DNA from: a virus
Lineage: Duplodnaviria; Heunggongvirae; Uroviricota; Caudoviricetes
Reading direction: 5' to 3' (one strand)
DNA length: 12,951 nt
Virus record (IMG/VR): IMGVR_UViG_2671180662_000002
Position numbers and translations under genes: made by a program. The notes under the pieces were generated by a model. It did no database searches and was not told the DNA's origin. It worked only from the letters and a program-made list of their open reading frames with translations. Of the stretch, positions 1 to 12,951 are shown one piece after another. Every line of letters starts with the position of its first letter. Position 1 is the first letter of the stretch.

Positions 1-61
1 AATCGGAAAATCGATACTGGAAAAACTCTAACTCGGTGGCCAGTTTTTGTTGACCACTTCA
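1..61 (+). mobile_element. Right terminal end (inverted repeat) of an IS3-family insertion sequence whose body lies upstream of the window
   Basis: Read on the minus strand inward from position 61, the sequence is TGAAGTGGTCAACAAAAACTGGCCAC. It starts with TGA and has GGCCAC at positions 21-26, mirroring the IS end at 12717 (TGAGGTAGCCTGAGTTTAACGGACAC, GGACAC at 21-26). IS3-family elements end 5'-TG...CA-3', and the + strand here ends ...CACTTCA at 61. All three forward frames are closed within bases 1-100, so the downstream terminase has no upstream continuation. Boundary is approximate to a few bp. Confidence 0.5.
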
Positions 62-1102
62 CCTTTCTTTCCGAACCTTGTTGATCACCTTCTGGTTAAG
101 CATCACACGGCTGATGGCGTTGAAGATGGCATTTCAATCTGCTACTTCAAGCCATACTCGCAAGGCCGTGCTCGCTGGCAGGGTGACACAATCCACGGCG
201 TGTGGTTTGACGAAGAGCCACCATACAGCATTTATGGCGAAGGTCTTACCCGTACCAACAAATACGGGCAATTCTCAATTCTGACGTTTACCCCGCTGAT
301 GGGGATGTCTGACGTTGTTACCAAGTTCCTGAAGAACCCCAGCAAGTCGCAGAAAGTGGTCAACATGACCATCTATGACGCTGAGCACTATACCGACGAG
401 CAGAAAGAGCAAATCATCGCATCATATCCCGAGCATGAGAGAGAGGCGCGTGCTCGCGGTATTCCTACGATGGGTAGTGGTCGAATCTTCCAGATACCGG
501 AAGAGACGATTAAGTGTCAGCCGTTCGAGTGTCCTGATCACTTCTACGTAATTGGCGGGATGGATTTCGGATGGGATCACCCACAGGCGCAAGTTCAGCT
601 TTGGTGGGATAAGGAGGCAGACACAATCTACGTTTCACGCGTGTGGAAGGCGAAAGAAAAAACAGCCGTTCAGGCGTGGGGAGCCGTTAAATCATGGGCG
701 CATAAAGTGCCAACCGCATGGCCTCATGATGGAAACCAGCACGAGAAGGGCGGCGGTGAGCAGCTCAAAGGGCAGTATGCAGACGCTGGATTTATGATGT
801 TGCAGGAGCATGCGACATGGCCTGATGGCGGTAACGCTGTTGAGCCAGGCATCACTGAATTGCGCGACATGATGCTCGATGGTCGCTTCAAAGTATTCAA
901 TACCTGTGAGCCATTCTTTGAGGAGTTCCGCCTCTATCACCGTGATGAAAACGGGAAAATCGTCAAGCTTAACGACGACGTGCTATCCGCCGTTCGCTAT
1001 GCATACATGATGCGCCGCTTCGCAAAAATGATGCGCGACATCAAAAAACCAAAAGAGAAAAAGATACCAGCCCCAATCAGGCCCATCGCACGGAGAACTT
1101 AA
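62..1102 (+). pseudogene. 2: Terminase large subunit (TerL), 5'-truncated: Walker B, coupling motif and nuclease domain retained, N-terminal region with Walker A absent
   Basis: Translation contains a Walker B-like GVWFDEE, an ILTFTP coupling-motif-like segment, and an RNaseH-like nuclease signature (YVIGGMDFG, then LNDDVLSAVRYA near the C-terminus). It sits immediately upstream of the portal gene, as in P22. The ORF-track start at 47 is a TTG inside the putative IS repeat, with an in-frame TAA at 29-31. About 347 codons remain, against roughly 470-500 aa for full-length P22-like TerL (recalled). Confidence 0.85.
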
Positions 1103-3268
1103 ATGGCCGACGAAAACAGACTCAATTCCATTCTGTGTAAGTTTGACGCAGACTGGATGGCGAGCGATGAAGCCAGAACCGAGGCGACAAATGACCTGTA
1201 TTTTAGCCGAGTGTCGCAATGGGATGACTGGCTATCAAACTACACTACCCTGCAATATCGCGGACAATTCGATGTTGTTCGCCCGGAGGTCAGGAAACTG
1301 GTCGCAGAGATGCGCCGGAACCCTGTCGACGTTCTCTTCCGACCCAAAGACGGCGCTAATCCTGATGCAGCCGATGTATTGATGGGGATGTATCGTACTG
1401 ATATGCGCCATAACACGGCAAAGATTGCCGTTAACGTTGGCGTTCGTGAGCAGATAGAGTCAGGCGTTGGTGCATGGCGTCTGGTCACGCAGTACGAAGA
1501 CAACGATCCAACAAGCAACAATCAGGTAATCCGACGCCTGCCAATCCATGAAGCCTGCTCACACGTCATATGGGACGCCAACAGCAAGCAGATGGATAAG
1601 AGCGACGCTAAGCACTGCACGGTGATTAACGCCTTGTCGCGCAATGGCTGGAAAGAGTTCGCAGAGGATTACGGTATTGACCCGGATACCCTGCCATCTT
1701 TCCAGAATCCTAACGATACATGGCTATTCCCGTGGGTGTCGAATGATGTCGTCTACGTCGCTGAGTATTACGAGGTAGAAGAGGAGAAGGAGAAGGTCTT
1801 CATCTACCGCGACCCGCTGACAGGTGAGCCGGTCAGCTATTACCAGCAGGATATCAAAGACGTCATCGACGACCTGGCTAATCGTGGATTCATTAAGGTA
1901 GCAGAGCGCAAGGTGAAGCGTCGGCGTGTGTATAAGTCGATCATCACCTGTACGCAGATACTGAAAGACCGCGAGAAGATAGCCGGAGAGCATATTCCAA
2001 TCGTTCCAGTGTATGGCGAATGGTCATTCGCTGGTGACAAGGAGTGCTACGAGGGTGTGGTAAGGCTGACGAAAGACGGTCAACGCCTTCGTAACATGAT
2101 TATGTCGTTCAACGCCGATATTGTTGCTCGGTCACCGAAGAAGAAACCGACCTTCTTCCCTGAGCAAATCGAAGGCTACGAATACATGTACGGCGGAAAT
2201 GATGACTATCCGTACTATCTGCAGAACAGGACTGATGAAAACGGTAACGACCTGCCGATTGGTCCAATCTCCTACATGGAAAACCCTGAAGTGCCGCAAG
2301 CCAACGCTTACATGCTTGAGGCTGCCACCAACGCAGTGAAAGAAGTGGCTAGTCTTGGCGTGGATGCGCAGGCGGCAAATGGTCAGGTCGCTTTTGATAC
2401 CGTCAATCAACTGAACATGCGGGCAGACCTTGAGACATACGTGTTTCAGGATAACCTGGCTACCGCAATGCGACGTGATGGCGAGATTTATGCCTCAATG
2501 GTCAACGATATTTATGACGTTCCTCGTCATGTAACGCTGACACTTGAAGATGGAAGCGAGAAAGACGTTCAACTCTATGCGCAAGTTGTCGATTACCAGT
2601 CCGGCAATGTGGTCACACTCAACGACATTCGCGGTCGATATGAGTGCTATACAGACGTTGGGCCATCCTTCCAGAGTATGAAGGAACAGAACCGCGCAGA
2701 GATTCAGGAGTTGCTCACCAAGGTTCCGCAAGGTACTCCAGAGTTCCAGATGCTGATGCTGCAATACTTCACGCTGCTTGACGGTAAAGGCGTCGAGATG
2801 ATGCGAGAGTACGCGAACAAGCAACTGGTGATGATGGGGCTGAAGAAACCAGAAACACCTGAAGAGATGGAGATGGTGCAGCAGGCACAACAACAGCCGC
2901 AGCAGCCATCAGCAGAGCAAATTCAGGCGCAGGGTATCCTTCTGCAAGGTCAGGCTGAATTGCTCAAGGCAGAGAACCAACAGGCGCAGATTCAGGTTGA
3001 AGCTGCCAAGGTTGAAGCCCAAAACCAACTCAACGCCGCGAAGATTGCAGAAATATTCAACAATATGGACCTCGACAAGCAGGCAGAACTGCGTGAGTAC
3101 CTCAGGCTCGTAGGTCAATTCCAGCAACAGCGCAGCAAAGATGCTCGTGCTAACGCTGAGCTGCTTCTTAAAGATGCAGACCAGACTCATTCACAACGCA
3201 TGGATTTCGCGAATCTTATGCGTCAAGTTCAAATCCCCTCCGGCGGAGTAGCCGAGACACCTCAATAA
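1103..3268 (+). CDS. 1: Portal protein (P22 gp1 family)
   Basis: 721 aa. The N-terminus ([28 protein letters not shown]...[10 protein letters not shown]) and long internal stretches ([43 protein letters not shown]) closely match my recollection of P22 gp1 (about 725 aa). The C-terminal 150 aa is Gln/Ala/Glu-rich and helical, consistent with the P22 portal barrel. GGAG ribosome-binding site 5 nt upstream; start abuts the TerL stop. Confidence 0.95.
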
Positions 3269-3281
3269 GAGAGAGTTAATC

Positions 3282-4193
3282 ATGGACCAAACCACCGACA
3301 TTCAGGCTTCTGAAGAATTAACCCTGCCCGGCAATCATGCAGCGGCATCTGCTGATGGCTTAGTTGTCGATAATGCCAACGACAGCGCAGGTCAGGAAGA
3401 AGGCTTTGAGATTGTCCGGAAAGACGATGAGAAACCAAAACAAGACCCGGCAACTAATGCTGAATTTGCCCGTCGCCGCATCGAACGCAAACGCCAGCGT
3501 GAGCTTGAGCAGCAGATGGAAGCGGTTAAGCGTGGAGAGTTGCCGGAGCACCTGCGGGTGAACCCTGAGTTACCAAAACAACCAGACCCTAACGATTATC
3601 TTTCCGAAGATGCACTGGCTAAGTACGACTATGACCAGAGCCGCGCACTGGCTGCCTTCCAGCAGGCAAACAGTGAATGGCAGATCAAGGCTATGGACGC
3701 ACGAAGCCAGGCTGTCGCCGAGCAGGGTCGCAAAACTCAGGAGTTCACCCAGCAATCAGCGCAATACGTCGAGGCGGCCCGTAAGCACTACGAGGCAGCG
3801 GAAAAGCTCAATATCCCTGACTATCAGGAGAAAGAGGATGCATTCATGCAACTGGTGCCGCCAGCAGTCGGTGCCGACATCATGCGCCTCTTCCCGGAGA
3901 AATCCGCCGCTCTCATGTATCACCTTGGTGCTAATCCTGAGAAAACACGCCAGTTGCTGGCGATGGACGGGCAATCCGCGCTGATTGAACTCACTCGACT
4001 GTCAGAACGTTTAACTCTCAAGCCTCGAGCCAAGCCTGTTTCAGAAGCCCCGTTACCTGATGAACCCATTCAGGGACATGCTGTTGCTGCAAATATCTCT
4101 GCGATTGAAAAGCAGATGGAGGCGGCAGCAAACAAAGGGGATGTAGAGACGTACCGCAAGCTCAAGGCGCAACTGAATAAAGGAATTCGATAA
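3282..4193 (+). CDS. 8: Scaffolding protein (P22 gp8 family)
   Basis: 303 aa, the same length as P22 gp8. Acidic, helical, with a basic C-terminal coat-binding region ([19 protein letters not shown]) and conserved stretches such as [30 protein letters not shown]. Sits between portal and coat. GAGAGAG ribosome-binding site upstream. Confidence 0.93.
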
Positions 4194-5488
4194 TGGCATT
4201 AAATGAAGGTCAACTGGTCACGTATGCTCTGGATGAAATCATCGGAACCGTCCAGAACCTGACGCCAATGGCGTCAAAAGTGACAAAATACCCCCCTCCG
4301 GCAGAATCCATGCAGCGTTCAAGCAACACCGTGTGGATGCCTGTTGAGCAGGAAGCGCCAACCCAGACTGGCTGGGATTTAACTGGCAACGCAACCGGGA
4401 TTCTGGAACTCTCCGTGAAGTGCAACATGGGCGATCCGGATAACGATTTCTTCGAGCTTCGTGCAGATGACCTGCGTGATGAGCGTTCTTACCGTCGCCG
4501 CATCCAGGCATCCGCCAAAAAACTGGCGAATAACATTGAGTCAGCGATTGCCAAACAGGCAACTGAAATGGGCTCGCTTGTTGTTCACGATACCCGCGCA
4601 ATTGGTCCATCGACTGGCCTGCCTGGCTGGGATTTTGTGTCTGATGCAGAGCGACTGATGTTCTCCCGTGAGCTAAACCGCGACATGGGCATCAGTTACT
4701 TCCTGAACCCTGACGATTACCGCAAAGCAGGCCGCAACCTGGTAGATGGTGACATCTTCGGGCGCGTTCCTGAAGAAGCATATCGAAACGGTACTATTCA
4801 GCGTCAGATTGCTGGCTTTGATGAAATTCTTCGCTCACCGAAACTTCCGGCAGTTACCAAGTCAACCGCGACTGGTGTAACTGTTTCTGGTGCGCAGAAG
4901 TTTAAGCCGCAGGCATACACCCTTGATACCGATGGTAACAAAGAGAACGTCGACAACCGTGTTGCAACGGTGACCGTATCCTCCACCACCGGATTTAAGC
5001 GCGGCGACAAAATCAGCTTCATTGGTGTGAAGTTCCTGTCTCAGATGGCGAAGAATGTGCTGACTGATGACGCGACTTTCTCAATCACCCGTGTGATCGA
5101 TGGTACTCACATCGAAATCACGCCGAAGCCGATTGCGCTGGATGACGCGTCACTGACAAAAGAAGAGAAGGCTTACGCTAACGTAAACACCTCTCTTGCT
5201 GATACCACTCCGGTAAACGTTCTGAACGTGGCAACAACCACCGCTAACGTGTTCTGGGCTGATGACTCAATCCGCCTGCTGTCTCAGCCGATCCCGGTAA
5301 CCCATGAACTGTTTGCTGGCATGAAAACGTCTTCCTTCAGCATTCCAGGTATTGGTGTTAACGGCATCTTCGCAACGCAGGGTGATATCAACACTCTGTC
5401 TGGTAAGTGCCGTATTGCTGTGTGGTATTCAGCATGTGCTGTACGACCAGAGGCAATTGGTGTTGGTCTGCCTAACCAGACCGCGTGA
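4193..5488 (+). CDS. 5: Major capsid (coat) protein (P22 gp5 family, HK97-like fold)
   Basis: 431 aa (P22 gp5 is 430 aa as I recall). N-terminus MALNEGQ and C-terminus [13 protein letters not shown] match P22 coat, with many conserved internal blocks ([49 protein letters not shown]). Start overlaps the scaffold stop (TAATG). Confidence 0.95.
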
Positions 5489-5496
5489 TAACCAGA

Positions 5497-5518
5497 GGGA
5501 GCTTCGGCTCCCGTTTTT
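5497..5518 (+). terminator. Rho-independent terminator-like hairpin just downstream of the coat gene
   Basis: GGGAGC (5497-5502), TTCG loop, GCTCCC (5507-5512), then G and TTTTT (5514-5518). A GC-rich 6-bp stem with a tetraloop and a T-run, 9 nt after the coat stop codon. Possibly a partial terminator or attenuator inside the late operon. Confidence 0.5.
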
Positions 5519-5532
5519 ATCTGGAGACAAGC

Positions 5533-5763
5533 ATGACACACATGATCTTTCGTCATGGCGACATGAAGAAGTGGAAAGGCGTTGGCTACGACTTTGAAAT
5601 CGTGAAAGCCGAAGAGCTTCAGGAATATCTGGATGCTGGCTGGTTTTCACATCCTGATGACCTTTTGAAGGATGTTGCAGAGCCAGAGCCAGAAGAAAAA
5701 CAGCGTAAAAAGCCTGGTCGAAAACCTAAGGCGGCAGCAGATGAACCTGACAACGAAGGGTGA
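5533..5763 (+). CDS. Small hypothetical protein (76 aa) between coat and gp4; acidic core with a Lys/Pro-rich basic tail
   Basis: ATG at 5533 with GGAG 6 nt upstream (5523-5526). Translation [76 protein letters not shown]. Its 3' end overlaps the gp4 start by 23 nt in another frame. The ORF-track start at 5485 is GTG and overlaps the coat stop; I prefer 5533. Function unknown. Confidence 0.45.
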
Positions 5764-6241
5764 TTTAGTTCTTGCGGCATTACGTAAGCTCGGTGTTGCA
5801 TCAAATGCCACGTTAACCGATGTCGAACCGCAGTCTATGGAAGACGGCGTCAACGACCTTGAAATGATGATGGCTGAATGGCTTGGCGGTGATGCGTCAC
5901 CTGGTATCAACGTTGGCTACATTTTTGCTGATGCAGATGTTGCTCCGGATCCGGGCGATGAGCACGGTTTATCAAATAACGCTATCAATGCCGTCATTTT
6001 CAACCTTGCCTGCCGAATTGCTCCAGATTATGCGCTGGAAGCGTCTGCAAAACTTATAACCACTGCCAGATACGGGAAAGAGCGACTCGTCAAACTGTCT
6101 GCAATGGACAGGGCAAAAGCAGCTAAATGTAAGTCCGGTTATCCAAACCGTATGCCTGTTGGTAGTGGTAACCAGTTGGCGAAGTGGAATGGTTGGAATT
6201 ACTTCCACCGAAAGGAACCTTGCGATAACGGGAGCGAATAA
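5741..6241 (+). CDS. 4: Tail adaptor / head-completion protein (P22 gp4 family)
   Basis: Start chosen at the internal ATG 5741 ([33 protein letters not shown]...), giving 166 aa. This matches the P22 gp4 N-terminus I recall ([21 protein letters not shown]...) and its length. Conserved [15 protein letters not shown] block. The ORF-track start at 5672 adds 23 non-homologous residues and is rejected. Confidence 0.85.
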
Positions 6242-7659
6242 TGCCTATTCAGCAACTTCCGCTTATGAAAGGTGTCGGCAAAGACTTCCGAAACGCCGAC
6301 TATATCGACTATCTGCCAGTGAATATGCTGGCTACACCCAAAGAAATCCTGAACAGCAGCGGATATCTTCGCTCATTCCCGGGCATTGCCAAACGTTCTG
6401 ACGTGAACGGTGTATCTCGCGGCGTCGAGTACAACATGGCGCAGAATGCTGTTTATCGCGTGTGTGGCGGCAAGCTGTACAAAGGAGAAAGTGAAGTCGG
6501 TGATGTTGCCGGAAGTGGTCGTGTATCAATGGCGCATGGTCGGACATCACAGGCGGTAGGCGTTAATGGTCAACTGGTCGAGTATCGCTATGATGGCACG
6601 GTCAAAACCGTCTCAAACTGGCCTACAGACAGTGGATTCACTCAGTATGAGTTAGGTTCAGTTCGCGACATTACGCGCTTACGTGGGCGTTATGCGTGGT
6701 CAAAAGACGGAACTGATTCATGGTTTATCACTGACCTTGAAGACGAATCTCATCCTGACCGTTACAGCGCACAATATCGTGCCGAGTCTCAGCCTGACGG
6801 CATCATCGGTATCGGGACATGGCGAGACTTCATCGTCTGCTTTGGTTCATCGACTATTGAATATTTCTCCCTGACTGGCGCAACCACCGTTGGTGCCGCT
6901 TTGTATGTTGCACAACCATCGCTGATGGTGCAGAAAGGCATTGCCGGAACTTACTGCAAAACGCCATTCGCTGATTCGTATGCGTTTATCAGCAATCCGG
7001 CAACGGGTGCGCCGTCTGTGTATATCATCGACTCCGGTCAGGTGTCACCAATTGCCAGCGCGAGCATTGAGAAAATCCTCCGCTCCTACACTGCTGATGA
7101 ACTGGCTGATGGTGTGATGGAATCGCTGCGATTTGATGCTCATGAGTTGCTGATTATCCACCTTCCGCGTCACGTCCTCGTGTACGACGCATCTTCAATC
7201 GCCAATGGCCCACAATGGTGTGTGCTGAAAACAGGTCTGTATGACGATGTGTACCGCGCTATCGACTTCGTTTACGAAGGCAATCAGATAACGTGCGGCG
7301 ATAAGCTGGAATCTGTTACCGGGAAACTGCAATTCGATATCAGCAGCCAGTACGACAAGCAACAGGAACACCTGCTGTTTACTCCACTCTTCAAAGCGGA
7401 TAACGCCAGAGTGTTCGACCTTGAGGTTGAATCGTCAACTGGCGTTGCGCAGTACGCCGACCGCCTTTTTCTCTCTGCAACCACTGACTGCATCAATTAC
7501 GGGCGTGAGCAGATGATTGAGCAGAATGAACCGTTCGTTTACGACAAGCGTGTTTTGTGGAAGCGAGTAGGGCGCATCAGGAAAAATGTCGGCTTCAAAT
7601 TGCGCGTTATCACGAAGTCACCTGTCACTCTGTCTGGCGCTCAGATAAGGATTGAGTAA
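6241..7659 (+). CDS. 10: Tail hub / tail accessory protein (P22 gp10 family)
   Basis: 472 aa, the same length as P22 gp10. N-terminus [49 protein letters not shown] is near-identical to my recollection of P22 gp10. Start overlaps the gp4 stop (TAATG). Confidence 0.9.
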
Positions 7660-8507
7660 TGGCTGATTCGAATCTCAATGTGCCGGTAATCATCCAAGCT
7701 ACGCGGCTCGATACATCAGTCCTTCCACGCAATATCTTCTCGCAGTCGTATCTGCTTTACGTTATCGCACAGGGCACTGATGTTGGTAACGTGGCTAACA
7801 AAGCCAACGAGGCCGGACAGGGCGCTTATGATGCACAGGTCAGGAACGATGAGCAGGATGTGATTCTCGCTGACCATGAGCAGCGAATTTCTGCTGCGGA
7901 AGCAACGCTTGTTAATCATGAGGAGCGAATCAGACAGGCAGAATCAACTCTTCAGGACCATGAAACACGAATAGCTCAGAATGAAAGCGATATTTCGTCG
8001 CTTGACACAAGAGTTCAGTCGCTGGAGTCGCAGGTTTCAGACCATGAAACGCGCATCGATGCTCTGGAGTATGCAACCACACGCAAGAAGTCAGAGGTTG
8101 TTTACTCTGGTGTATCTGTAACCATCCCGACAGCGCCGACCAACCTTGTTAGCCTGCTGAAAACGCTCACACCGTCATCCGGCTCGTTGGCACCATTCTT
8201 CGACACCGTTAACAACAAGATGGTTGTGTTCAACGAGAACAAAACCCTGCTCTTCAAGTTGTCGATTGTCGGCACGTGGCCCAGCGGAACCGCCAACAGG
8301 TCAATGCAGCTAACCTTTTCCGGCTCTGTTCCTGACACACTGGTCAGCAGTCGTAATGCGGCGACAACAACCGACAACATCCTGTTAGCTACGTTCTTCA
8401 GCGTGGATAAAGACGGCTTTCTTGCCACAAATGGCAGTACGTTAACCATTCAGTCGAATGGTGCGGCGTTTACTGCCACAACCATCAAGATAATCGCGGA
8501 GCAGTGA
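7659..8507 (+). CDS. 26: Tail needle / plug protein (P22 gp26 family) with a C-terminal knob-type domain unlike the P22 C-terminus (Sf6-type)
   Basis: 282 aa. The N-terminal 60 aa ([43 protein letters not shown]...) match the P22 gp26 N-terminus, followed by a coiled-coil segment with a 14-residue DHExRI repeat. The C-terminal ~130 aa is Ser/Thr-rich and beta-like, not P22-like. Length and architecture fit the Sf6 needle (recalled). Confidence 0.88.
7872..8069 (+). repeat. 42-bp periodic in-frame repeat encoding the trimeric coiled-coil shaft of the tail needle
   Basis: GACCATGAGCAGCGAATT at 7872, AATCATGAGGAGCGAATC at 7914, GACCATGAAACACGAATA at 7956 and GACCATGAAACGCGCATC at 8040 sit at 42-nt multiples. 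They encode D/N-H-E-x-R-I every 14 residues (two heptads). Confidence 0.7.
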
Positions 8508-8962
8508 TGATTACATTCAAACCAACGCGAAACATCGACCTGATAGAAGCAGTCGGAAATCACCCTGACATTATCGCCGGGAGCAACAACGGTGATGGAT
8601 ACGACTACAAACCTGAATGCCGTTACTTTGAGGTGAACGTGCACGGTCAGTTTGGCGGCATTGTTTACTATCAGGAGATTCAGCCGCTGACATTAGATTG
8701 CCACGCCATGTACCTGCCAGAGATTCGCGGCTTCAGCAAGGAAATTGGGCTGGCGTTCTGGCGATACATTCTGACTAACACCACCGTTCAGTGCGTAACA
8801 TCGTTCGCTGCACGCAAATTCCGACACGGTCAGATGTACTGCGCAATGATTGGCCTTAAGCGTGTAGGAACCATCAAGAAATACTTCAAAGGCGTGGATG
8901 ACGTGACTTTTTACAGCGCCACACGCGAAGAACTAATCGACTTCCTGAATCACGGGAGATAG
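8504..8962 (+). CDS. 14: gp14-position protein (virion assembly / ejection-associated), assigned by synteny
   Basis: 152 aa ORF whose start overlaps the needle stop (ATGA). It occupies the slot between gp26 and gp7 that gene 14 holds in P22. I cannot confirm sequence identity from memory, so the assignment rests on position and size only. Confidence 0.65.
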
Positions 8963-8964
8963 CC

Positions 8965-9657
8965 ATGTTATATGCATTTAAGCTGGGCAGAAAACTGCGC
9001 GGCGAGGAACCTTATTGCCCTGAAAAAGGCGGGAAAGGTGGCAGTTCTGATAAAAGCGCAAAGTATGCAGCAGAAGCCCAGAAGTATGCTGCAGACCTGC
9101 AAAATCAGCAGTGGCAGACGATCATGAAAAACCTTGCTCCGTTCACGCCTCTTGCGGAGCAGTATGTTAACCAGCTTCAGAACCTTTCCAGTTTAGAAGG
9201 TCAGGGGCAGGCACTTAATCAGTATTACAACTCTAAGCAGTATAAAGACCTTGCAGGGCAGGCGCGTTACCAGAGTCTTGCTGCTGCGGAGGCGACGGGT
9301 GGACTTGGTTCGACAGCCACAAGCAATCAACTGGCTACGATCGCGCCGACACTCGGTCAGTCTTGGTTATCAAATCAGATGAGCAATTACAACAATCTGG
9401 CAAACGTTGGGCTTGGTGCGCTGCAAGGTCAGGCAAACGCCGGGCAGACGTACGCCAACAACATGAGCAGCATTGCACAGCAAAGCGCAGCTCTTGCCGC
9501 TGCTAATGCCAATAAACCATCAAGTCTTCAGACTGCAATTAGCGGTGGCACGTCTGGTGCGATTGCCGGTGCAGGTCTTGCCAGCCTTTTGGGAACATCA
9601 ACGCCTTGGGGCGCTGGTATTGGTGCTGGTATCGGATTGCTTGGCTCGTTGTTTTAA
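8965..9657 (+). CDS. 7: Ejection (E) protein, P22 gp7 family
   Basis: 230 aa. N-terminus MLYAFKLGRKLRGEEPYCPEKGGKGGSSDKSAKYAAEAQKYAADLQNQQWQTIMKNLAPF closely matches my recollection of P22 gp7. Gln/Asn/Ala-rich body and a C-terminal Gly/Ala-rich hydrophobic segment (GAIAGAGLASLLGTSTPWGAGIGAGIGLLGSLF). GGGAGA ribosome-binding site upstream. Confidence 0.88.
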   Translation: MLYAFKLGRKLRGEEPYCPEKGGKGGSSDKSAKYAAEAQKYAADLQNQQWQTIMKNLAPFTPLAEQYVNQLQNLSSLEGQGQALNQYYNSKQYKDLAGQARYQSLAAAEATGGLGSTATSNQLATIAPTLGQSWLSNQMSNYNNLANVGLGALQGQANAGQTYANNMSSIAQQSAALAAANANKPSSLQTAISGGTSGAIAGAGLASLLGTSTPWGAGIGAGIGLLGSLF

Positions 9658-9666
9658 GGGGGAATC

Positions 9667-10998
9667 ATGGCTACTTGGCAAGGAACAAACGGCGGATTGT
9701 TGGCTGGTATCGGCGGCGTCAACTCAAACGCTCCGAGCGTAAATGACATCGGCAATACGCTTCAGCTTATCAGGCAGAACAATGATATTGAGCGTTCAGG
9801 CGCTAACAATGTTGGGCTGACTGCTTTGCAAGGTCTTTCAGGTATTGCGGGTGTTTTTCAGCAGGAAAAGCAGGCTCAGCGGCAGAAAGAATTTCAGCAG
9901 GCGTACGCTAATGCTTATGCGTCTGGTGATCGCGGTGCTTTGCGTCAGTTGGCTACTCAATATCCAGACCAGATTGAATCCGTTCGTAAAGGCATGGGAT
10001 TCATTGATGAAGAGCAGCGTAATTCTATCGGCACCTTAGCGGCTGGCGCACGCCTTGCGTCATCGTCTCCAGAAGCAATGCAATCATGGCTGCAAAACAA
10101 CGCCGGTGAGTTAGCTCGTGTTGGCGTTAATCCTCATGACGTCGCTCAGATGTACCAACAGAACCCGCGGCAGTTCGGCGAATTTGTCGATCACCTGGGG
10201 ATGAACAGTCTCGGGCCCGAAAAATACTTTGACCTACAGGATAAAATGCAGGGTCGCCAGGTTACCATGCGCGGTCAGGATCTGGATTCGCAAACCGCCG
10301 CTCGGAATCAGGCAATCACAATGCGCGGACAAGATATCCAGGCGAATTTAGGTCAGCAGCGCATTAATCTGGACGCAGAAACAAACCGCATTAACAACGA
10401 AAATAAGCGCCTTGACCGGATGCTATCAGCAGAAACTAACGACCTGAAGCGCCAGGAAATACAGAGCCGCATAGCAGCCAACAACCAGCAGTTGCAGCAG
10501 AAGCAGCAAGCGCTAAATGATGGCTACAAAGACGGCATCAACACCCTCACAACCAGCATGTTCACTCTGAACGATATCGTTAGTTCTCCTTCACTTAAGA
10601 GCATTACAGGCTTACGTGGAGTAATCCCCAACGTTCCAGGCTCACAGGCTGCAGACACTCAGGCACGACTTGATACCTTTAAATCACAAGCATACCTGAC
10701 AGCGGTTCAGGCCATGCGAGGCATGGGCGCACTTTCTGATGCCGAGGGCAAAAAGCTCGACCAGGCTGTTGGTTCGCTGCAGAACTCGCAGAGCGAGGAG
10801 TCCTTTCGTCGCAACGCTGGCGTCATCCTGAACACGCTCAACCAGAAGCGTAATGAGGCGGTTGGTAAGTACGTTCAGCAAAACGGTATCAAGCGAGTGG
10901 AAGCGCCTCAGGCTTCTATAGATTACCTGAAGCAGCACCCCGAGCTGTCAATCGACTTCATTAATCGCTACGGATATCTTCCATCTTTGGGGCAGTAA
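9667..10998 (+). CDS. 20: Ejection (E) protein, gp20-position
   Basis: 443 aa, Gln/Asn-rich and largely helical, with an internal duplicated motif (VTMRGQDLD and ITMRGQDIQ, 18 residues apart). It sits between gp7 and the last ejection gene as gene 20 does in P22 (P22 gp20 is about 471 aa, recalled). AGGGGG ribosome-binding site upstream. Assigned by synteny and composition. Confidence 0.72.
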   Translation: MATWQGTNGGLLAGIGGVNSNAPSVNDIGNTLQLIRQNNDIERSGANNVGLTALQGLSGIAGVFQQEKQAQRQKEFQQAYANAYASGDRGALRQLATQYPDQIESVRKGMGFIDEEQRNSIGTLAAGARLASSSPEAMQSWLQNNAGELARVGVNPHDVAQMYQQNPRQFGEFVDHLGMNSLGPEKYFDLQDKMQGRQVTMRGQDLDSQTAARNQAITMRGQDIQANLGQQRINLDAETNRINNENKRLDRMLSAETNDLKRQEIQSRIAANNQQLQQKQQALNDGYKDGINTLTTSMFTLNDIVSSPSLKSITGLRGVIPNVPGSQAADTQARLDTFKSQAYLTAVQAMRGMGALSDAEGKKLDQAVGSLQNSQSEESFRRNAGVILNTLNQKRNEAVGKYVQQNGIKRVEAPQASIDYLKQHPELSIDFINRYGYLPSLGQ

Positions 10999-12729
10999 AT
11001 GGCTAATTACCGTGATTTGTTAGAGCAGGCTGGCGCACGTTACGGTGTGCCAGAAGGGTTGATGACTGCACTGGGTGCCAAGGAGTCTTCTTACAACCCT
11101 GCCGCAGTAAGCTCCGCCGGGGCTGTAGGATTGACTCAGGTCATGCCTGGGACATGGCGTGATATGGGTTATACCGATGAGCAAATGCAAAACCCCGAAT
11201 ATCAGGCTGACGCTGGCGCGCGCTATCTGGCAAAGATGTACCAGCAGTTTGGTAACTGGCGTGACTCTCTTCAGGCTTATCACGACGGTCCCGGCAACGT
11301 TATGAAGGCAAAGCGTGGTGAATATACGCCAGGACCTGAAGGCCGCGGTTACGTTGATGATCGCTTTGCTCAATGGGCTGGTGACCCGGTGACAGACTCA
11401 ACAGTCGAACAGCGCGCCACCTCTGCAAAGGTACATCCTCAGCAAGACCCTAACAACCCGTTTGCACAACTGGAAGTACAGTCATCCGAACAAGTATCGG
11501 CATCAGGTGTGCAGTCAGACCCAAATAATCCATTTGCTCAGATTGAGCAGCAGGCAGCCAGTCAGCAGCCACCTCAACCCGTAAGTTCTGTCGCACCGAA
11601 ACCTGTTCAGCAACAAACAGTTAATCAGGCCAATAATGCACCAACACGGGAAGAACCATCATTGATGCAACAAGCTGGCGATTGGCTCACTGGTGGTCAA
11701 AGTGCAGGGCAAATTGCAGAACAGGCTGGTCGTGGTCTGGTAAACATACCATTTGACGTATTGCAGGGTGGCGCAAGTCTGATTAATGCAATCAGTCAGG
11801 GGCTTGGGGGGCCAAAAGTATTGGATGATGTTTATCGTCCAGTAGACAGACCGACAGACCCCTACGCGCAAGCTGGAGAGTCAATAGGCGGTTATCTTGT
11901 TCCTGGAGCAGGTGTAGCTGGAAACATGGTCATTGGTTCTCTCGCTGACGCGGCGAATCAACGGGGTGATTTTGCCGAAAATGCCGCTATTAATGCCGGA
12001 CTTAGCATTGCTACGCATGGCCTGATAAATGGCGTTACCCGTGGTGTTCGTGGTGCATCAAATATAATTAGTGGCAATAAAACATCTGCACAGAGAGCGA
12101 CCACTGCGCCAACAGAAACATCACCATTCTCCGGTGATGCCGCTGCAGCAACAAATCCTGCGGTTCATGCCGCAGAGGCAAGAGTAGCACAAGGTGTACC
12201 AATGACGCCTGCGACGAAGAACCCAGAGGAAGTCGTTCGCACAGTAGCAGCACAAAAAAGGCCAAATCTCGCTTCATCGCTTGATGAACTAGATATCAAT
12301 CCTCAGGCTGAAGTTCTGGAGTCTGCTGAAAGGCTTAATGTTGATTCATTACTCCCTTCACACTTTTCCGGGAACGAGCAATACAAGGCAGTTGAGCAAG
12401 CAATCAAGTCCCGTGCGGGTTCTGCTCTACAGGTGCAGGAAAATGAAGCAATCAGGCAGCTAGCACAGGGCGCGGGTGAGATAATTGATCGCGTTTCCGG
12501 TGCAAAAGATGCTCTTGGTATGAGCGACAAGTTTATTGATACGGTCAATGGAAGAATGTCTGCGCTGATGAAACGAAGCGACCAGCTTTATCGCAATGTT
12601 GAAAAGGCGATGCCTGCAGGTGCAAAAATTGATGCGCCATCAACAAGGTCAATGCTCAAACAGGTGGCAGAAGATCTTGGCGGGATGAAAAACCTTGACC
12701 CTATTGAAAAGAGAGTTGAGGTAGCCTGA
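10999..12729 (+). CDS. 16: Ejection (E) protein at the gp16 position, with an N-terminal lytic transglycosylase (SLT) domain; the last codons and stop come from the adjacent IS inverted repeat, so it is probably 3'-truncated
   Basis: 576 aa. Residues about 8-115 carry family-1 lytic transglycosylase motifs: AKESSYNP (candidate catalytic Glu29), [10 protein letters not shown], and [10 protein letters not shown] tandem motif DPNNPFAQ(L/I)E follows. The C-terminal half is Ala/Gly-rich. The stop TGA at 12727-12729 lies inside the putative IS left repeat, which starts about 12717. Start abuts the gp20 stop. Confidence 0.78.
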
Positions 12730-12951
12730 GTTTAACGGACACTCCTTCCTGAAATAGAATGGCATCAGAAGGAGCTAATAATGAGCAGAAAAACCCAACG
12801 TTACTCTAAAGAGTTCAAAGCCGAAGCTGTCAGAACGGTTCTTGAAAATCAACTTTCGATCAGTGAAGGCGCTTCCCGATTATCCCTTCCTGAAGGCACT
12901 TTAGGACAATGGGTTACCGCCGCCAGAAAAGGGCTCGGTACTCCTGGTTCC
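12717..12951 (+). mobile_element. Left end of an IS3-family insertion sequence (IS600-like), continuing beyond the window end
   Basis: Terminal repeat TGAGGTAGCCTGAGTTTAACGGACAC starts with TG and has GGACAC at positions 21-26, as in the IS3 left repeat I recall (TGATCTTACCCAGCAATAGTGGACAC). It is followed by an AGGAG ribosome-binding site and an OrfA-type reading frame. Exact first base is uncertain by a few nt. Confidence 0.8.
12781..12951 (+). CDS. IS3-family transposase OrfA (helix-turn-helix DNA-binding N-terminal part), 3'-partial at window end
   Basis: ATG at 12781 with AGGAG 7 nt upstream. Translation MSRKTQRYSKEFKAEAVRTVLENQLSISEGASRLSLPEGTLGQWVTAARKGLGTPGS has the short basic N-terminus and helix-turn-helix typical of IS3-family OrfA. 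It resembles what I recall for IS600 of Shigella. The ORF runs off the end of the window. Confidence 0.85.
   Translation, partial: MSRKTQRYSKEFKAEAVRTVLENQLSISEGASRLSLPEGTLGQWVTAARKGLGTPGS

Follow-up and report, generated by a model that had tools for sequence, protein, structure and literature searches.

The closest described systems are the P22-like temperate phages and the cryptic prophages of Shigella that have been degraded by insertion sequences (IS). IS600 and IS911 are among the five IS that are expanded in all Shigella, and much of this expansion was already present in the ancestor of S. flexneri, the lineages of which are young, having diversified only hundreds of years ago (PMC7373316).

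Here, we have analysed a stretch of 12,951 nucleotides, which we refer to as the window, in comparison with P22-like phages and with E. coli and S. flexneri genomes. The window very probably carries a late-operon fragment of a P22-like (Lederbergvirus-type) prophage of the S. flexneri chromosome, which is non-functional, eroded by IS and carried passively. It is a prophage remnant of an ordinary kind, a product of the well-known IS expansion in Shigella: like other IS-degraded cryptic Shigella prophages, it has genes that are cut by IS species expanded in Shigella, and nothing essential sets it apart from them. A full-text search of the literature has returned no paper that describes the S. 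flexneri IS911-terL'...gp16'-IS600 locus. Beyond correct annotation, the importance of the locus is slight, as a textbook case of the IS expansion of Shigella breaking up prophages; the flanking IS should be named IS911 and IS600, and never a repeat pair or a transposon.

The P22-like block and its relatives

The features of the window are the following, with the supporting evidence in parentheses.

1-61, + strand: right end of IS911 (IS3 family), IRR tip at base 61 (identity to annotated IS911 copies; body upstream of the window)
62-1102, + strand: terL', the 3' 1041 nt of the large terminase gene (intact gene of 1500 nt in E. coli F1005 and APC_JM3.2)
1103-3268, + strand: portal protein of the P22 gp1 type, full length, 721 aa (Pfam P22_portal, E = 3e-161)
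3282-4193, + strand: scaffolding protein, full length, 303 aa (Pfam Phage-scaffold, E = 6e-177)
4193-5488, + strand: major capsid (coat) protein of the P22 gp5 type, full length, 431 aa (Pfam P22_CoatProtein, E = 1e-163)
5497-5512, + strand: terminator-like G+C-rich hairpin followed by a T run, 9 nt past the coat stop (consensus scan)
5533-5763, + strand: small ORF, 76 aa (called in S. flexneri genomes and F1005, position conserved)
5678-10485, no strand: recombinant patch of 4.8 kb (distribution of differences and pN/pS)
5741-6241, + strand: gp4-type tail accessory (head-completion) protein, 166 aa (Pfam P22_Tail-4, E = 1e-58)
6241-7659, + strand: gp10-type packaged-DNA stabilisation protein, 472 aa (Pfam Phage_stabilise, E = 1e-298)
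7659-8507, + strand: gp26-type tail needle with an Sf6-type knob, 282 aa (Pfam Phage_tail_NK, E = 2e-116)
8507-8962, + strand: gp14-position protein (DUF2824), 151 aa (Pfam DUF2824, E = 1e-52)
8965-9657, + strand: gp7 ejection protein, 230 aa (Pfam P22_gp7, E = 3e-134)
9667-10998, + strand: gp20 ejection protein, 443 aa (Pfam Inj_translocase, E = 1e-67)
10999-12716, + strand: gp16-position ejection gene, first 1718 nt (intact ORF of 2736 nt in F1005 and APC_JM3.2; junction alignment)
12717-12951, + strand: left end of IS600 (IS3 family), IRL tip at 12717 (identity to annotated IS600; HTH_Tnp_1)

The phage DNA extends over positions 62-12716, and both breakpoints have been set to the base by alignment to an uninterrupted relative. 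Between the two IS ends, the window holds P22-type morphogenesis and ejection genes exclusively, from head, portal and needle to ejection, over about 12.65 kb; nine or ten ORFs of the block remain full length, the portal protein being equal in length to that of intact relatives, and the 76-aa ORF has no family match in Pfam. The order of the genes is terL-portal-scaffold-coat-gp4-gp10-gp26-gp14-gp7-gp20-gp16, as established with P22-specific Pfam families, and is collinear with that of annotated phages.

The block (62-12716) is approximately 97% identical to the E. coli phage APC_JM3.2, and the comparison of positions 59-12716 has yielded 97% identity, with the same gene order, to both this phage and an intact E. 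coli prophage. More generally, the Lederbergvirus phages of E. coli (APC_JM3.2, Dewey and IME10) share the gene order of the window and are 95-97% identical to it over most of its length, and Sf6 is 95.6% identical to it over about 6.2-10.2 kb, i.e. the gp10-gp20 block. Unlike the P22-like temperate phages, the remnant is not a phage genome: it is without immunity, replication and lysis genes, the small terminase, the 5' end of the large terminase, the 3' end of gp16, the tailspike, O-antigen modification genes, integrase and att sites.

That both terminal genes are cut, as the original prediction had stated, is seen at the level of codons. The terL' gene has lost 456 nt (152 codons) at its 5' end and, with them, the beginning of the ATPase domain; Pfam Terminase_6N matches it over profile positions 73-214 of 215, and the intact protein over 1-214. 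The gp16-like gene keeps 572 complete codons and is cut inside codon 573 of 911, with 1018 nt (338 codons) missing; its N-terminal lytic transglycosylase domain is retained (Pfam SLT, E = 9e-25, and a precomputed match to Phage_P22_gp16). Its frame enters IS600, where it meets a stop at 12727-12729, resulting in a product of 576 aa; this truncated protein is abundant in Shigella and seems to misguide the automatic annotation of the intact E. coli gene.

The small terminase and the tailspike, which might have been present elsewhere near the remnant, were searched for in 14 loci: neither is found within 10 kb, nor are the 5' part of terL, the 3' part of gp16 and arc. Since terS, the 5' end of terL, the 3' end of gp16 and the tailspike are absent within this distance, and since the terminase is without the start of its ATPase domain, the remnant cannot work as a phage, and the expectation that the prophage is very likely defective is borne out. 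With an incomplete terminase, and with host or IS DNA on both sides, it is not a functional (inducible) P22-like prophage.

C-terminal fragments of gp16 do exist in S. flexneri drafts, as a protein search has revealed. One family of fragments was considered as the missing 3' half and rejected, because it belongs to a different, Sf6-like prophage with oac and an integrase beside yfdC-type genes; a second family occurs on a rare contig with arc, a tailspike stump, gtr genes and a thrW-like att core, and shows no tie to the remnant.

The insertion sequences at the two ends

At 61 of 61 positions, bases 1-61 match the IS911 right end of over 1,100 records of E. coli, and the matching records are annotated as "IS3-like element IS911 family transposase". 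The terminus reads ...CCACTTCA, with its last base at position 61, and the reverse complement reads TGAAGTGGTCAACAAAAACTGGCCACC...; the orfB stop, TGA at 51-53, lies within the terminal repeat. Thus, the window is like IS911 in the identity of all 61 bases, in its TG...CA type tip and in the position of the orfB stop inside the repeat. Inspection of the outer flanks, which the original prediction had proposed, has located the body of the element in S. flexneri genomes that show no difference from the window over 1-12801: base 61 is there the last base of a complete IS911 of 1249 bp, with HTH_Tnp_1 and rve ORFs, which lies, for example, at positions 7711-8959 of one S. flexneri locus (L013).

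This copy of IS911 is unlike a simple insertion: there is no 3-bp target duplication around it in L013, the flanks being TCT on the left and CCT on the right, and its orientation depends on the strain; a second IS911 copy, in strain 2457T, does carry a TCT duplication. In complete genomes, the left neighbours of IS911 are approximately 340 bp of lambdoid DNA, IS2 and a type VI secretion remnant. Because the left flank is unrelated lambdoid DNA, IS911 would have been inserted first and the region rearranged afterwards.

At the other end, bases 12717-12951 are identical at 235 of 235 positions to the annotated left end of IS600; the tip, TGAGG, begins at 12717, and the ATG of orfA is located at 12781, not 12782, with a frame that leaves the window. 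The window shares with IS600 the terminal repeat and the first 57 OrfA codons, at 100% over the 235 bases, and these codons match Pfam HTH_Tnp_1 (E = 1e-15); it stops at bp 235 of an element that is 1264 bp when complete. The IS600 copy in complete S. flexneri genomes differs from that of the window, in that it is a stub of 85 bp (bp 1-85), which has neither transposase nor right end and is broken off by an IS1203/IS629-like element; psiF-phoA-iraP-ddlA follow this element, and the right junction is found 8 bp beyond psiF, at the place that adrA occupies in E. coli.

Positions 12802-12951 of the window continue along IS600 and, therefore, differ from every complete S. flexneri genome examined. 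The source strain of the window may be arranged differently at the right flank, since its IS600 passes bp 85. An assembly artefact, in which the contig was extended along the consensus of the multi-copy IS600 and not along the single-copy path into the IS1203-like element, is a real possibility, if somewhat short of probable: at each of the approximately 15 S. flexneri loci, complete or draft, that extend over the site, the sequence turns into the IS1203/IS629-like element after 12801; an exact 136-bp string that spans the gp16'/IS600 junction and position 12801 is absent from the genome, viral and metagenome collections; and in most assemblies the block lies on a contig of 10-20 kb bounded by repeats. 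However, the same sequence would arise in a real strain by recombination between the stub and a full IS600, and the collections scanned for the 136-bp string contain few Shigella genomes. A shorter junction string has its matches exclusively in genomes with the IS1203-like interruption. Contig ends within multi-copy IS, such as this one, require long-read confirmation.

With regard to the origin of the two ends, the original prediction had offered either two independent IS hits or an IS-mediated deletion. There is no target duplication around IS911, and the DNA outside both IS is non-phage or unrelated; therefore, a rearrangement beyond two simple insertions is supported. We infer the following order of events. 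In an ancestor of S. flexneri, IS911 would have entered the large terminase gene, and IS600 the ejection gene at the gp16 position; later IS-driven events, which may have been adjacent deletions and/or inversions, together with the insertion of the IS1203/IS629-like element into IS600 and rearrangements on the IS911 side, would have led to the loss or relocation of everything beyond the two IS points. The present state would be one of passive carriage and neutral decay, in which the remnant could still undergo homologous recombination with P22-like or Sf6-like phages that enter the cell. The original integration site is likewise a matter of inference; the site of the closest intact E. coli prophage, that of F1005, between sbcB and dacD, was considered for it and is uninformative, being unrelated to the Shigella location.

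Spread, decay and exchange in S. flexneri

S. flexneri 2457T, 8401, 2002017 and many further assemblies have these junctions as well; the remnant is fixed in S. flexneri, and 1949 blocks of the assembly collection list the 576-aa product, which is specific to the junction. Such sharing of junctions across S. flexneri lineages is what would be expected of insertions that became fixed in a common ancestor.

The differences between the window and the allele of the S. flexneri 8401 type are concentrated at positions 5678-10485, where they reach approximately 3.3%, against approximately 0.1% in the flanks; within this patch, pS is 0.11 and pN/pS is 0.06. The patch is an import by homologous recombination with another P22-like genome, in one lineage. 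Outside the patch, on the vertically inherited part, pN/pS is 0.68, which is indistinguishable from neutral; these substitutions look neutral, and number only 10, by which neutrality is not proven. Independent frameshifts, each private to a single strain, occur in gp7, terL' and gp16'. In that a dead prophage has traded a kilobase patch with live phages, the locus offers a modestly useful natural example of a known process.

Two readings would give the remnant a function. In the first, the ORF-intact head and ejection-protein cassette is kept for its interaction with Sf6-like or P22-like phages that infect the cell, either as a reservoir from which kilobase patches are swapped with them, a swap of which the 4.8-kb patch documents at least one case, or as a source of defective subunits that disturb their assembly; we hold this reading to be quite improbable. 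In the second, the structural block owes its persistence to selection, as a domesticated module; its role might then be to form capsid-like particles, to provide other phages or satellites with parts, or to hinder infecting Sf6-like phages. The portal, scaffold, coat, gp4, gp10, needle, gp14, gp7 and gp20 genes are indeed full length in most strains, the block is found across S. flexneri lineages, and its DNA has been exchanged with a functional phage lineage. However, the small terminase and the start of the terminase ATPase domain are absent, nothing promoter-like is present at the left junction, promoter-like sites being rarer than in shuffled sequence, and the value of pN/pS and the independent frameshifts also argue against selection; in lineages as young as those of S. 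flexneri (PMC7373316), intact ORFs are expected without it. Domestication is, on this evidence, very improbable, and passive carriage is the preferred reading.

The two elements as a pair

The two ends had been described as direct repeats on the + strand, with TGA at the tip and GGNCAC at positions 21-26. The shared motif is present (TGA at both tips, followed at 21-26 by GGCCAC in the IS911 IRR and GGACAC in the IS600 IRL), and the transposase reading frames of both elements are on the + strand; the ends are not repeats, given that the first 40 bases of the two tips agree at 15 of 40 positions and that a repeat finder run on the window has found no direct or inverted repeat joining its ends. 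Thus, of the proposed P22-like structural module between two same-orientation IS3-family ends, the module, the family and the orientation stand, and the repeats do not.

Neither are there two direct copies of an IS, by which the segment had been suggested to be mobilised or deleted as a unit: IS911 on the left and IS600 on the right show 53% identity when aligned in full, and at no point do they share more than 12 consecutive bases; for this reason they are neither substrates for homologous deletion nor matched transposon ends. Mobilisation as a unit has also to be abandoned, because the IS600 stub, which is all that remains of the element in every complete S. flexneri genome inspected, has no transposase and no right end and therefore cannot mobilise anything. 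That the module, bracketed by two direct copies of one IS, is a composite transposon or a unit deletable by recombination has a practically negligible probability: it resembles one in being a DNA segment between two same-orientation IS of one family with similar tips, but differs in having two IS species, with an identity and a longest match far under the needs of RecA-dependent recombination, no target duplication, and module-facing ends that are the IRR of one species and the IRL of another, so that two matching ends are available to neither transposase; moreover, the unit has not been seen at any other place, all recovered loci being the same chromosomal site.

The orientation of IS911 relative to the terminase stump varies among strains, and some of them carry the element flipped, exactly in place. 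As the cause of the flip, homologous recombination between IS911 copies in inverted orientation was considered and rejected, because it cannot alter which end of the IS abuts the flank. A terL' product of 350 aa is called in 61 blocks, a number that depends on the start codon chosen by the gene caller and does not, therefore, tell how common the IS911(+) junction is. The exact flip of IS911 among strains is, like the patch, a modestly useful natural example of a known process.

The P22-like module and its truncated end genes

The window holds a block of P22-like morphogenesis genes that lies between the ends of two different insertion sequences, and the gene at each end of the block is cut by the adjoining IS. 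Bases 62-12716 are ~97% identical both to the late region of the E. coli phage APC_JM3.2 (genus Lederbergvirus) and to the intact prophage of E. coli F1005, while their identity to the Salmonella P22-like phages is ~80%. The Pfam matches return the P22 gene set in its canonical order, as follows.

Features of the window, on its one strand
1-61: right end of IS911
62-1102: terL', the 5'-truncated gene of the terminase large subunit (Pfam)
Next in order: portal, scaffold and coat genes (Pfam)
Between coat and gp4: ORF of 76 aa
Next in order: gp4, gp10 and a tail needle with an Sf6-type knob (Pfam)
Next in order: DUF2824 (gp14 position), gp7 and gp20 (Pfam)
10999-12716: gp16', the 3'-truncated gene of the gp16-position ejection protein, with an N-terminal lytic transglycosylase domain (Pfam)
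12717-12951: left end of IS600

Compared with its intact relatives, terL' is without its first 456 nt (152 codons), and its ATPase-domain profile covers positions 73-214 only. The gp16-like gene is cut after 1718 of its 2736 nt, i.e. in codon 573 of 911, which leaves 572 complete codons and 1018 nt missing; the frame of gp16' continues for 13 nt into IS600 before it meets a stop. The genes between the two have the same lengths as in functional phages, and the expectation that only morphogenesis genes, with both terminal genes cut, would be found between the IS ends is borne out. The fragment is unable to package DNA or to form infectious particles.

Nine nucleotides past the coat stop, a G+C-rich hairpin (GGGAGC-TTCG-GCTCCC, 5497-5512) is followed by a T run and resembles a terminator midway through the late operon. 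In E. coli F1005, the gp16-like ORF (L003 16942-19677) is intact and encodes 911 aa; RefSeq nevertheless has here a pseudogene "missing C-terminus" whose end, at 18660, is the exact equivalent of the Shigella IS600 cut. This annotation is probably an artefact, brought about by how common the truncated Shigella protein is.

The bordering insertion sequences

On the left, bases 1-61 match the IS911 right end at every position (61/61) in over a thousand E. coli records, in which the feature that overlaps them is annotated "IS3-like element IS911 family transposase". In one annotated IS911 copy the transposase frame stops 8 bases short of the IS tip, so that in the window the tip (...CCACTTCA) falls on base 61 and the orfB TGA on 51-53. 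On the right, bases 12717-12951 are identical (235/235) to the left end of IS600: the tip (TGAGGTAGCC...) begins at 12717, the orfA ATG lies at 12781, and the 57 orfA codons that are present match the Pfam family HTH_Tnp_1 (E = 1e-15). Aligning the window with both an uninterrupted relative and a reference copy of the IS sets the phage/IS boundaries at 61/62 and 12716/12717. The original prediction had placed an IS right end and an IS left end with OrfA at these same positions, and had noted a TGA tip and GGNCAC at positions 21-26 in both; the two right and left inverted repeats indeed begin with TGA and carry GGCCAC (IS911 IRR) and GGACAC (IS600 IRL).

The further proposal that the two ends are direct repeats, through which the segment could be moved or lost as a unit, finds no support in the comparison of the elements. 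Over their full length, IS911 and IS600 share 53% identity in a global alignment and a longest exact run of 12 bp, so the pair cannot serve for RecA-dependent deletion of the segment, and a repeat finder run on the whole window detected no repeat that links its ends. By sequence, the two are different IS species, and the module-facing ends, IS911 IRR and IS600 IRL, would form no matched pair for either transposase, given their differing subterminal sequences. Furthermore, the IS600 of the complete genomes is a stub that has neither a transposase nor a right end.

Host genomes and flanking DNA

By exact-protein look-up, the block lies in the chromosome of Shigella flexneri: in 2457T (AE014073), 8401 (CP000266), 2002017 (CP001383) and many other strains. 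Over 1-12801, several genomes show 100% identity to the window, and in an assembly collection the junction-specific 576-aa product occurs in 1949 blocks and the portal in 2711. Reference genomes published since 2003 contain the locus. IS911 and IS600 are known elements, P22-like modules are well studied, and prophages broken up by IS are typical of Shigella genomes; the locus is nothing new in kind and of low interest, and a full-text search found no literature specifically on it.

In the window-type genomes (L013, L017), the left flank consists of a complete 1249-bp IS911, ~340 bp of lambdoid DNA, IS2 and the remnants of a type VI secretion cluster. The bases beside IS911 are TCT on one side and CCT on the other, hence the 3-bp target duplication that had been proposed as a check is absent. 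In every complete genome examined, the right flank consists of the first 85 bp of IS600 (to window 12801), a 1306-bp IS1203/IS629-like element (L010 11803-13108, in 2002017), psiF, which starts 8 bp past the right end of this element, phoA, iraP and ddlA; in ordinary E. coli, adrA adjoins psiF at the corresponding point. Unlike all these genomes, the window continues as canonical IS600 over its last 150 bases (12802-12951), and the exact sequence across 12801 has no match in the genome, viral and metagenome collections. Either the source strain recombined with another IS600 through the 85-bp stub, or assembly carried the end of a contig on along the multi-copy IS600.

No small terminase gene, terminase 5' end, gp16 3' end, arc or tailspike gene is found in the 10 kb to the left or right of the block in 14 S. 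flexneri loci. Together with the flanks, this means that neither IS sits as a simple insertion within a prophage that is otherwise complete; the rest of the prophage has been deleted or moved by IS-associated rearrangement. The original prediction was right in describing an IS-eroded, defective prophage, and wrong about the repeat pair.

To the left of IS911, 8401 (L014 2216-7700) and 2457T (L015 4757-7713) have a lambdoid lysis cassette (holin, lysozyme, Rz) in opposite orientation, which window-type genomes lack. Its Rz shares ~93% identity with the Rz of intact P22-like relatives, and the cassette may be the ancestral prophage's own lysis region, now inverted. Among the S. flexneri drafts, a rare contig (L024 1-5868, L025, L026) carries the last 274 codons of a gp16-like gene, arc/mnt, an N-terminal tailspike stump, gtrC-type, gtrB and gtrA genes and a thrW-like att core; the three independent contigs begin at the same base, 192 bp past the window's cut. 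The contig is a candidate for the gtr end of some P22-like prophage at thrW, and any link to the remnant would be conjectural.

Proposed origin of the remnant and its later changes

Both breakpoints are identical across the divergent 8401-type and 2457T-type lineages, and are thus older than the diversification of these lineages. In the history that we propose, IS911 would have inserted into terL and IS600 into the gp16-like gene of a P22-like prophage in an S. flexneri ancestor; an IS1203-like element would then have entered IS600 at bp 85, and an adjacent deletion or inversion would have joined it to the psiF-adrA intergenic region, while on the other side terS and the terL 5' end would have been lost through IS911-associated events. 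This history agrees with what is documented of IS600 and IS911, which have expanded in all Shigella; the common ancestor of S. flexneri already had much of this expansion (PMC7373316). A consensus scan found no outstanding promoter-like site at the IS911 junction, and 5 promoter matches in the whole window, where shuffled sequence would give 10.6.

The window and the 8401-type allele, a second version of the remnant, differ at ~170 positions, of which ~160 fall in a patch at 5678-10485 (L014 14560-19375); the clustering of the differences between near-identical flanks indicates that ~4.8 kb were replaced by homologous recombination in one lineage. In the patch, pS is 0.114 and pN/pS 0.06, values that are the signature of divergence built up in functional phages; the donor was another P22-like genome, and the exchange postdates the fixation of the remnant. 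The patch overlaps a block that is common to Shigella phage Sf6 at ~95.5%, but the best identity of either allele to a sequenced phage is ~96.6%, so no donor can be named. At 5678-5683, the alleles also differ by an in-frame 6-bp indel (CAGAGC repeat unit) in the 76-aa ORF. Outside the patch, 10 coding substitutions occur in ~7.7 kb, with a pN/pS of 0.68, which does not differ from the neutral value (p = 0.70). Apparent strain-private single-base frameshifts, in terL' of 2457T (window-equivalent 750), gp7 of 2002017 and gp16' of CP102212 (L017), affect three different genes and are consistent with neutral decay. Taken together, these patterns point to passive carriage and neutral decay, not to domestication.

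The IS911/terL' junction occurs in three states that share one identical terL breakpoint (window-equivalent 1-70); the comparison also took in the locus L012 (7710-8959).

States of the IS911/terL' junction
State 1: IS911(+) adjoining terL'; window, L013 (7711-8959), L017
State 2: IS911 inverted exactly in place; 2457T (L015 7713-8958), CP182555
State 3: IS911(+), then a 9-bp stub (GCCACTTCA) of an inverted IRL; 8401 (L014 7701-8959), L016

Homologous recombination between inverted IS911 copies is rejected as the cause of the flip, since it cannot flip an IS relative to both of its flanks. A candidate route has two steps, in which an IS911 copy would insert beside the end of one already present and the copies in direct orientation would then recombine; passages of PMC9333248 and PMC3299598 cite the targeting by IS911 of its own ends. 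An extra IS911 is present in 2457T (L015 3509-4757), with a clean 3-bp TCT target duplication. Its site is the exact IS911 left junction of the window-type genomes, which implies that a two-copy IS911 intermediate gave rise to the window-type arrangement.
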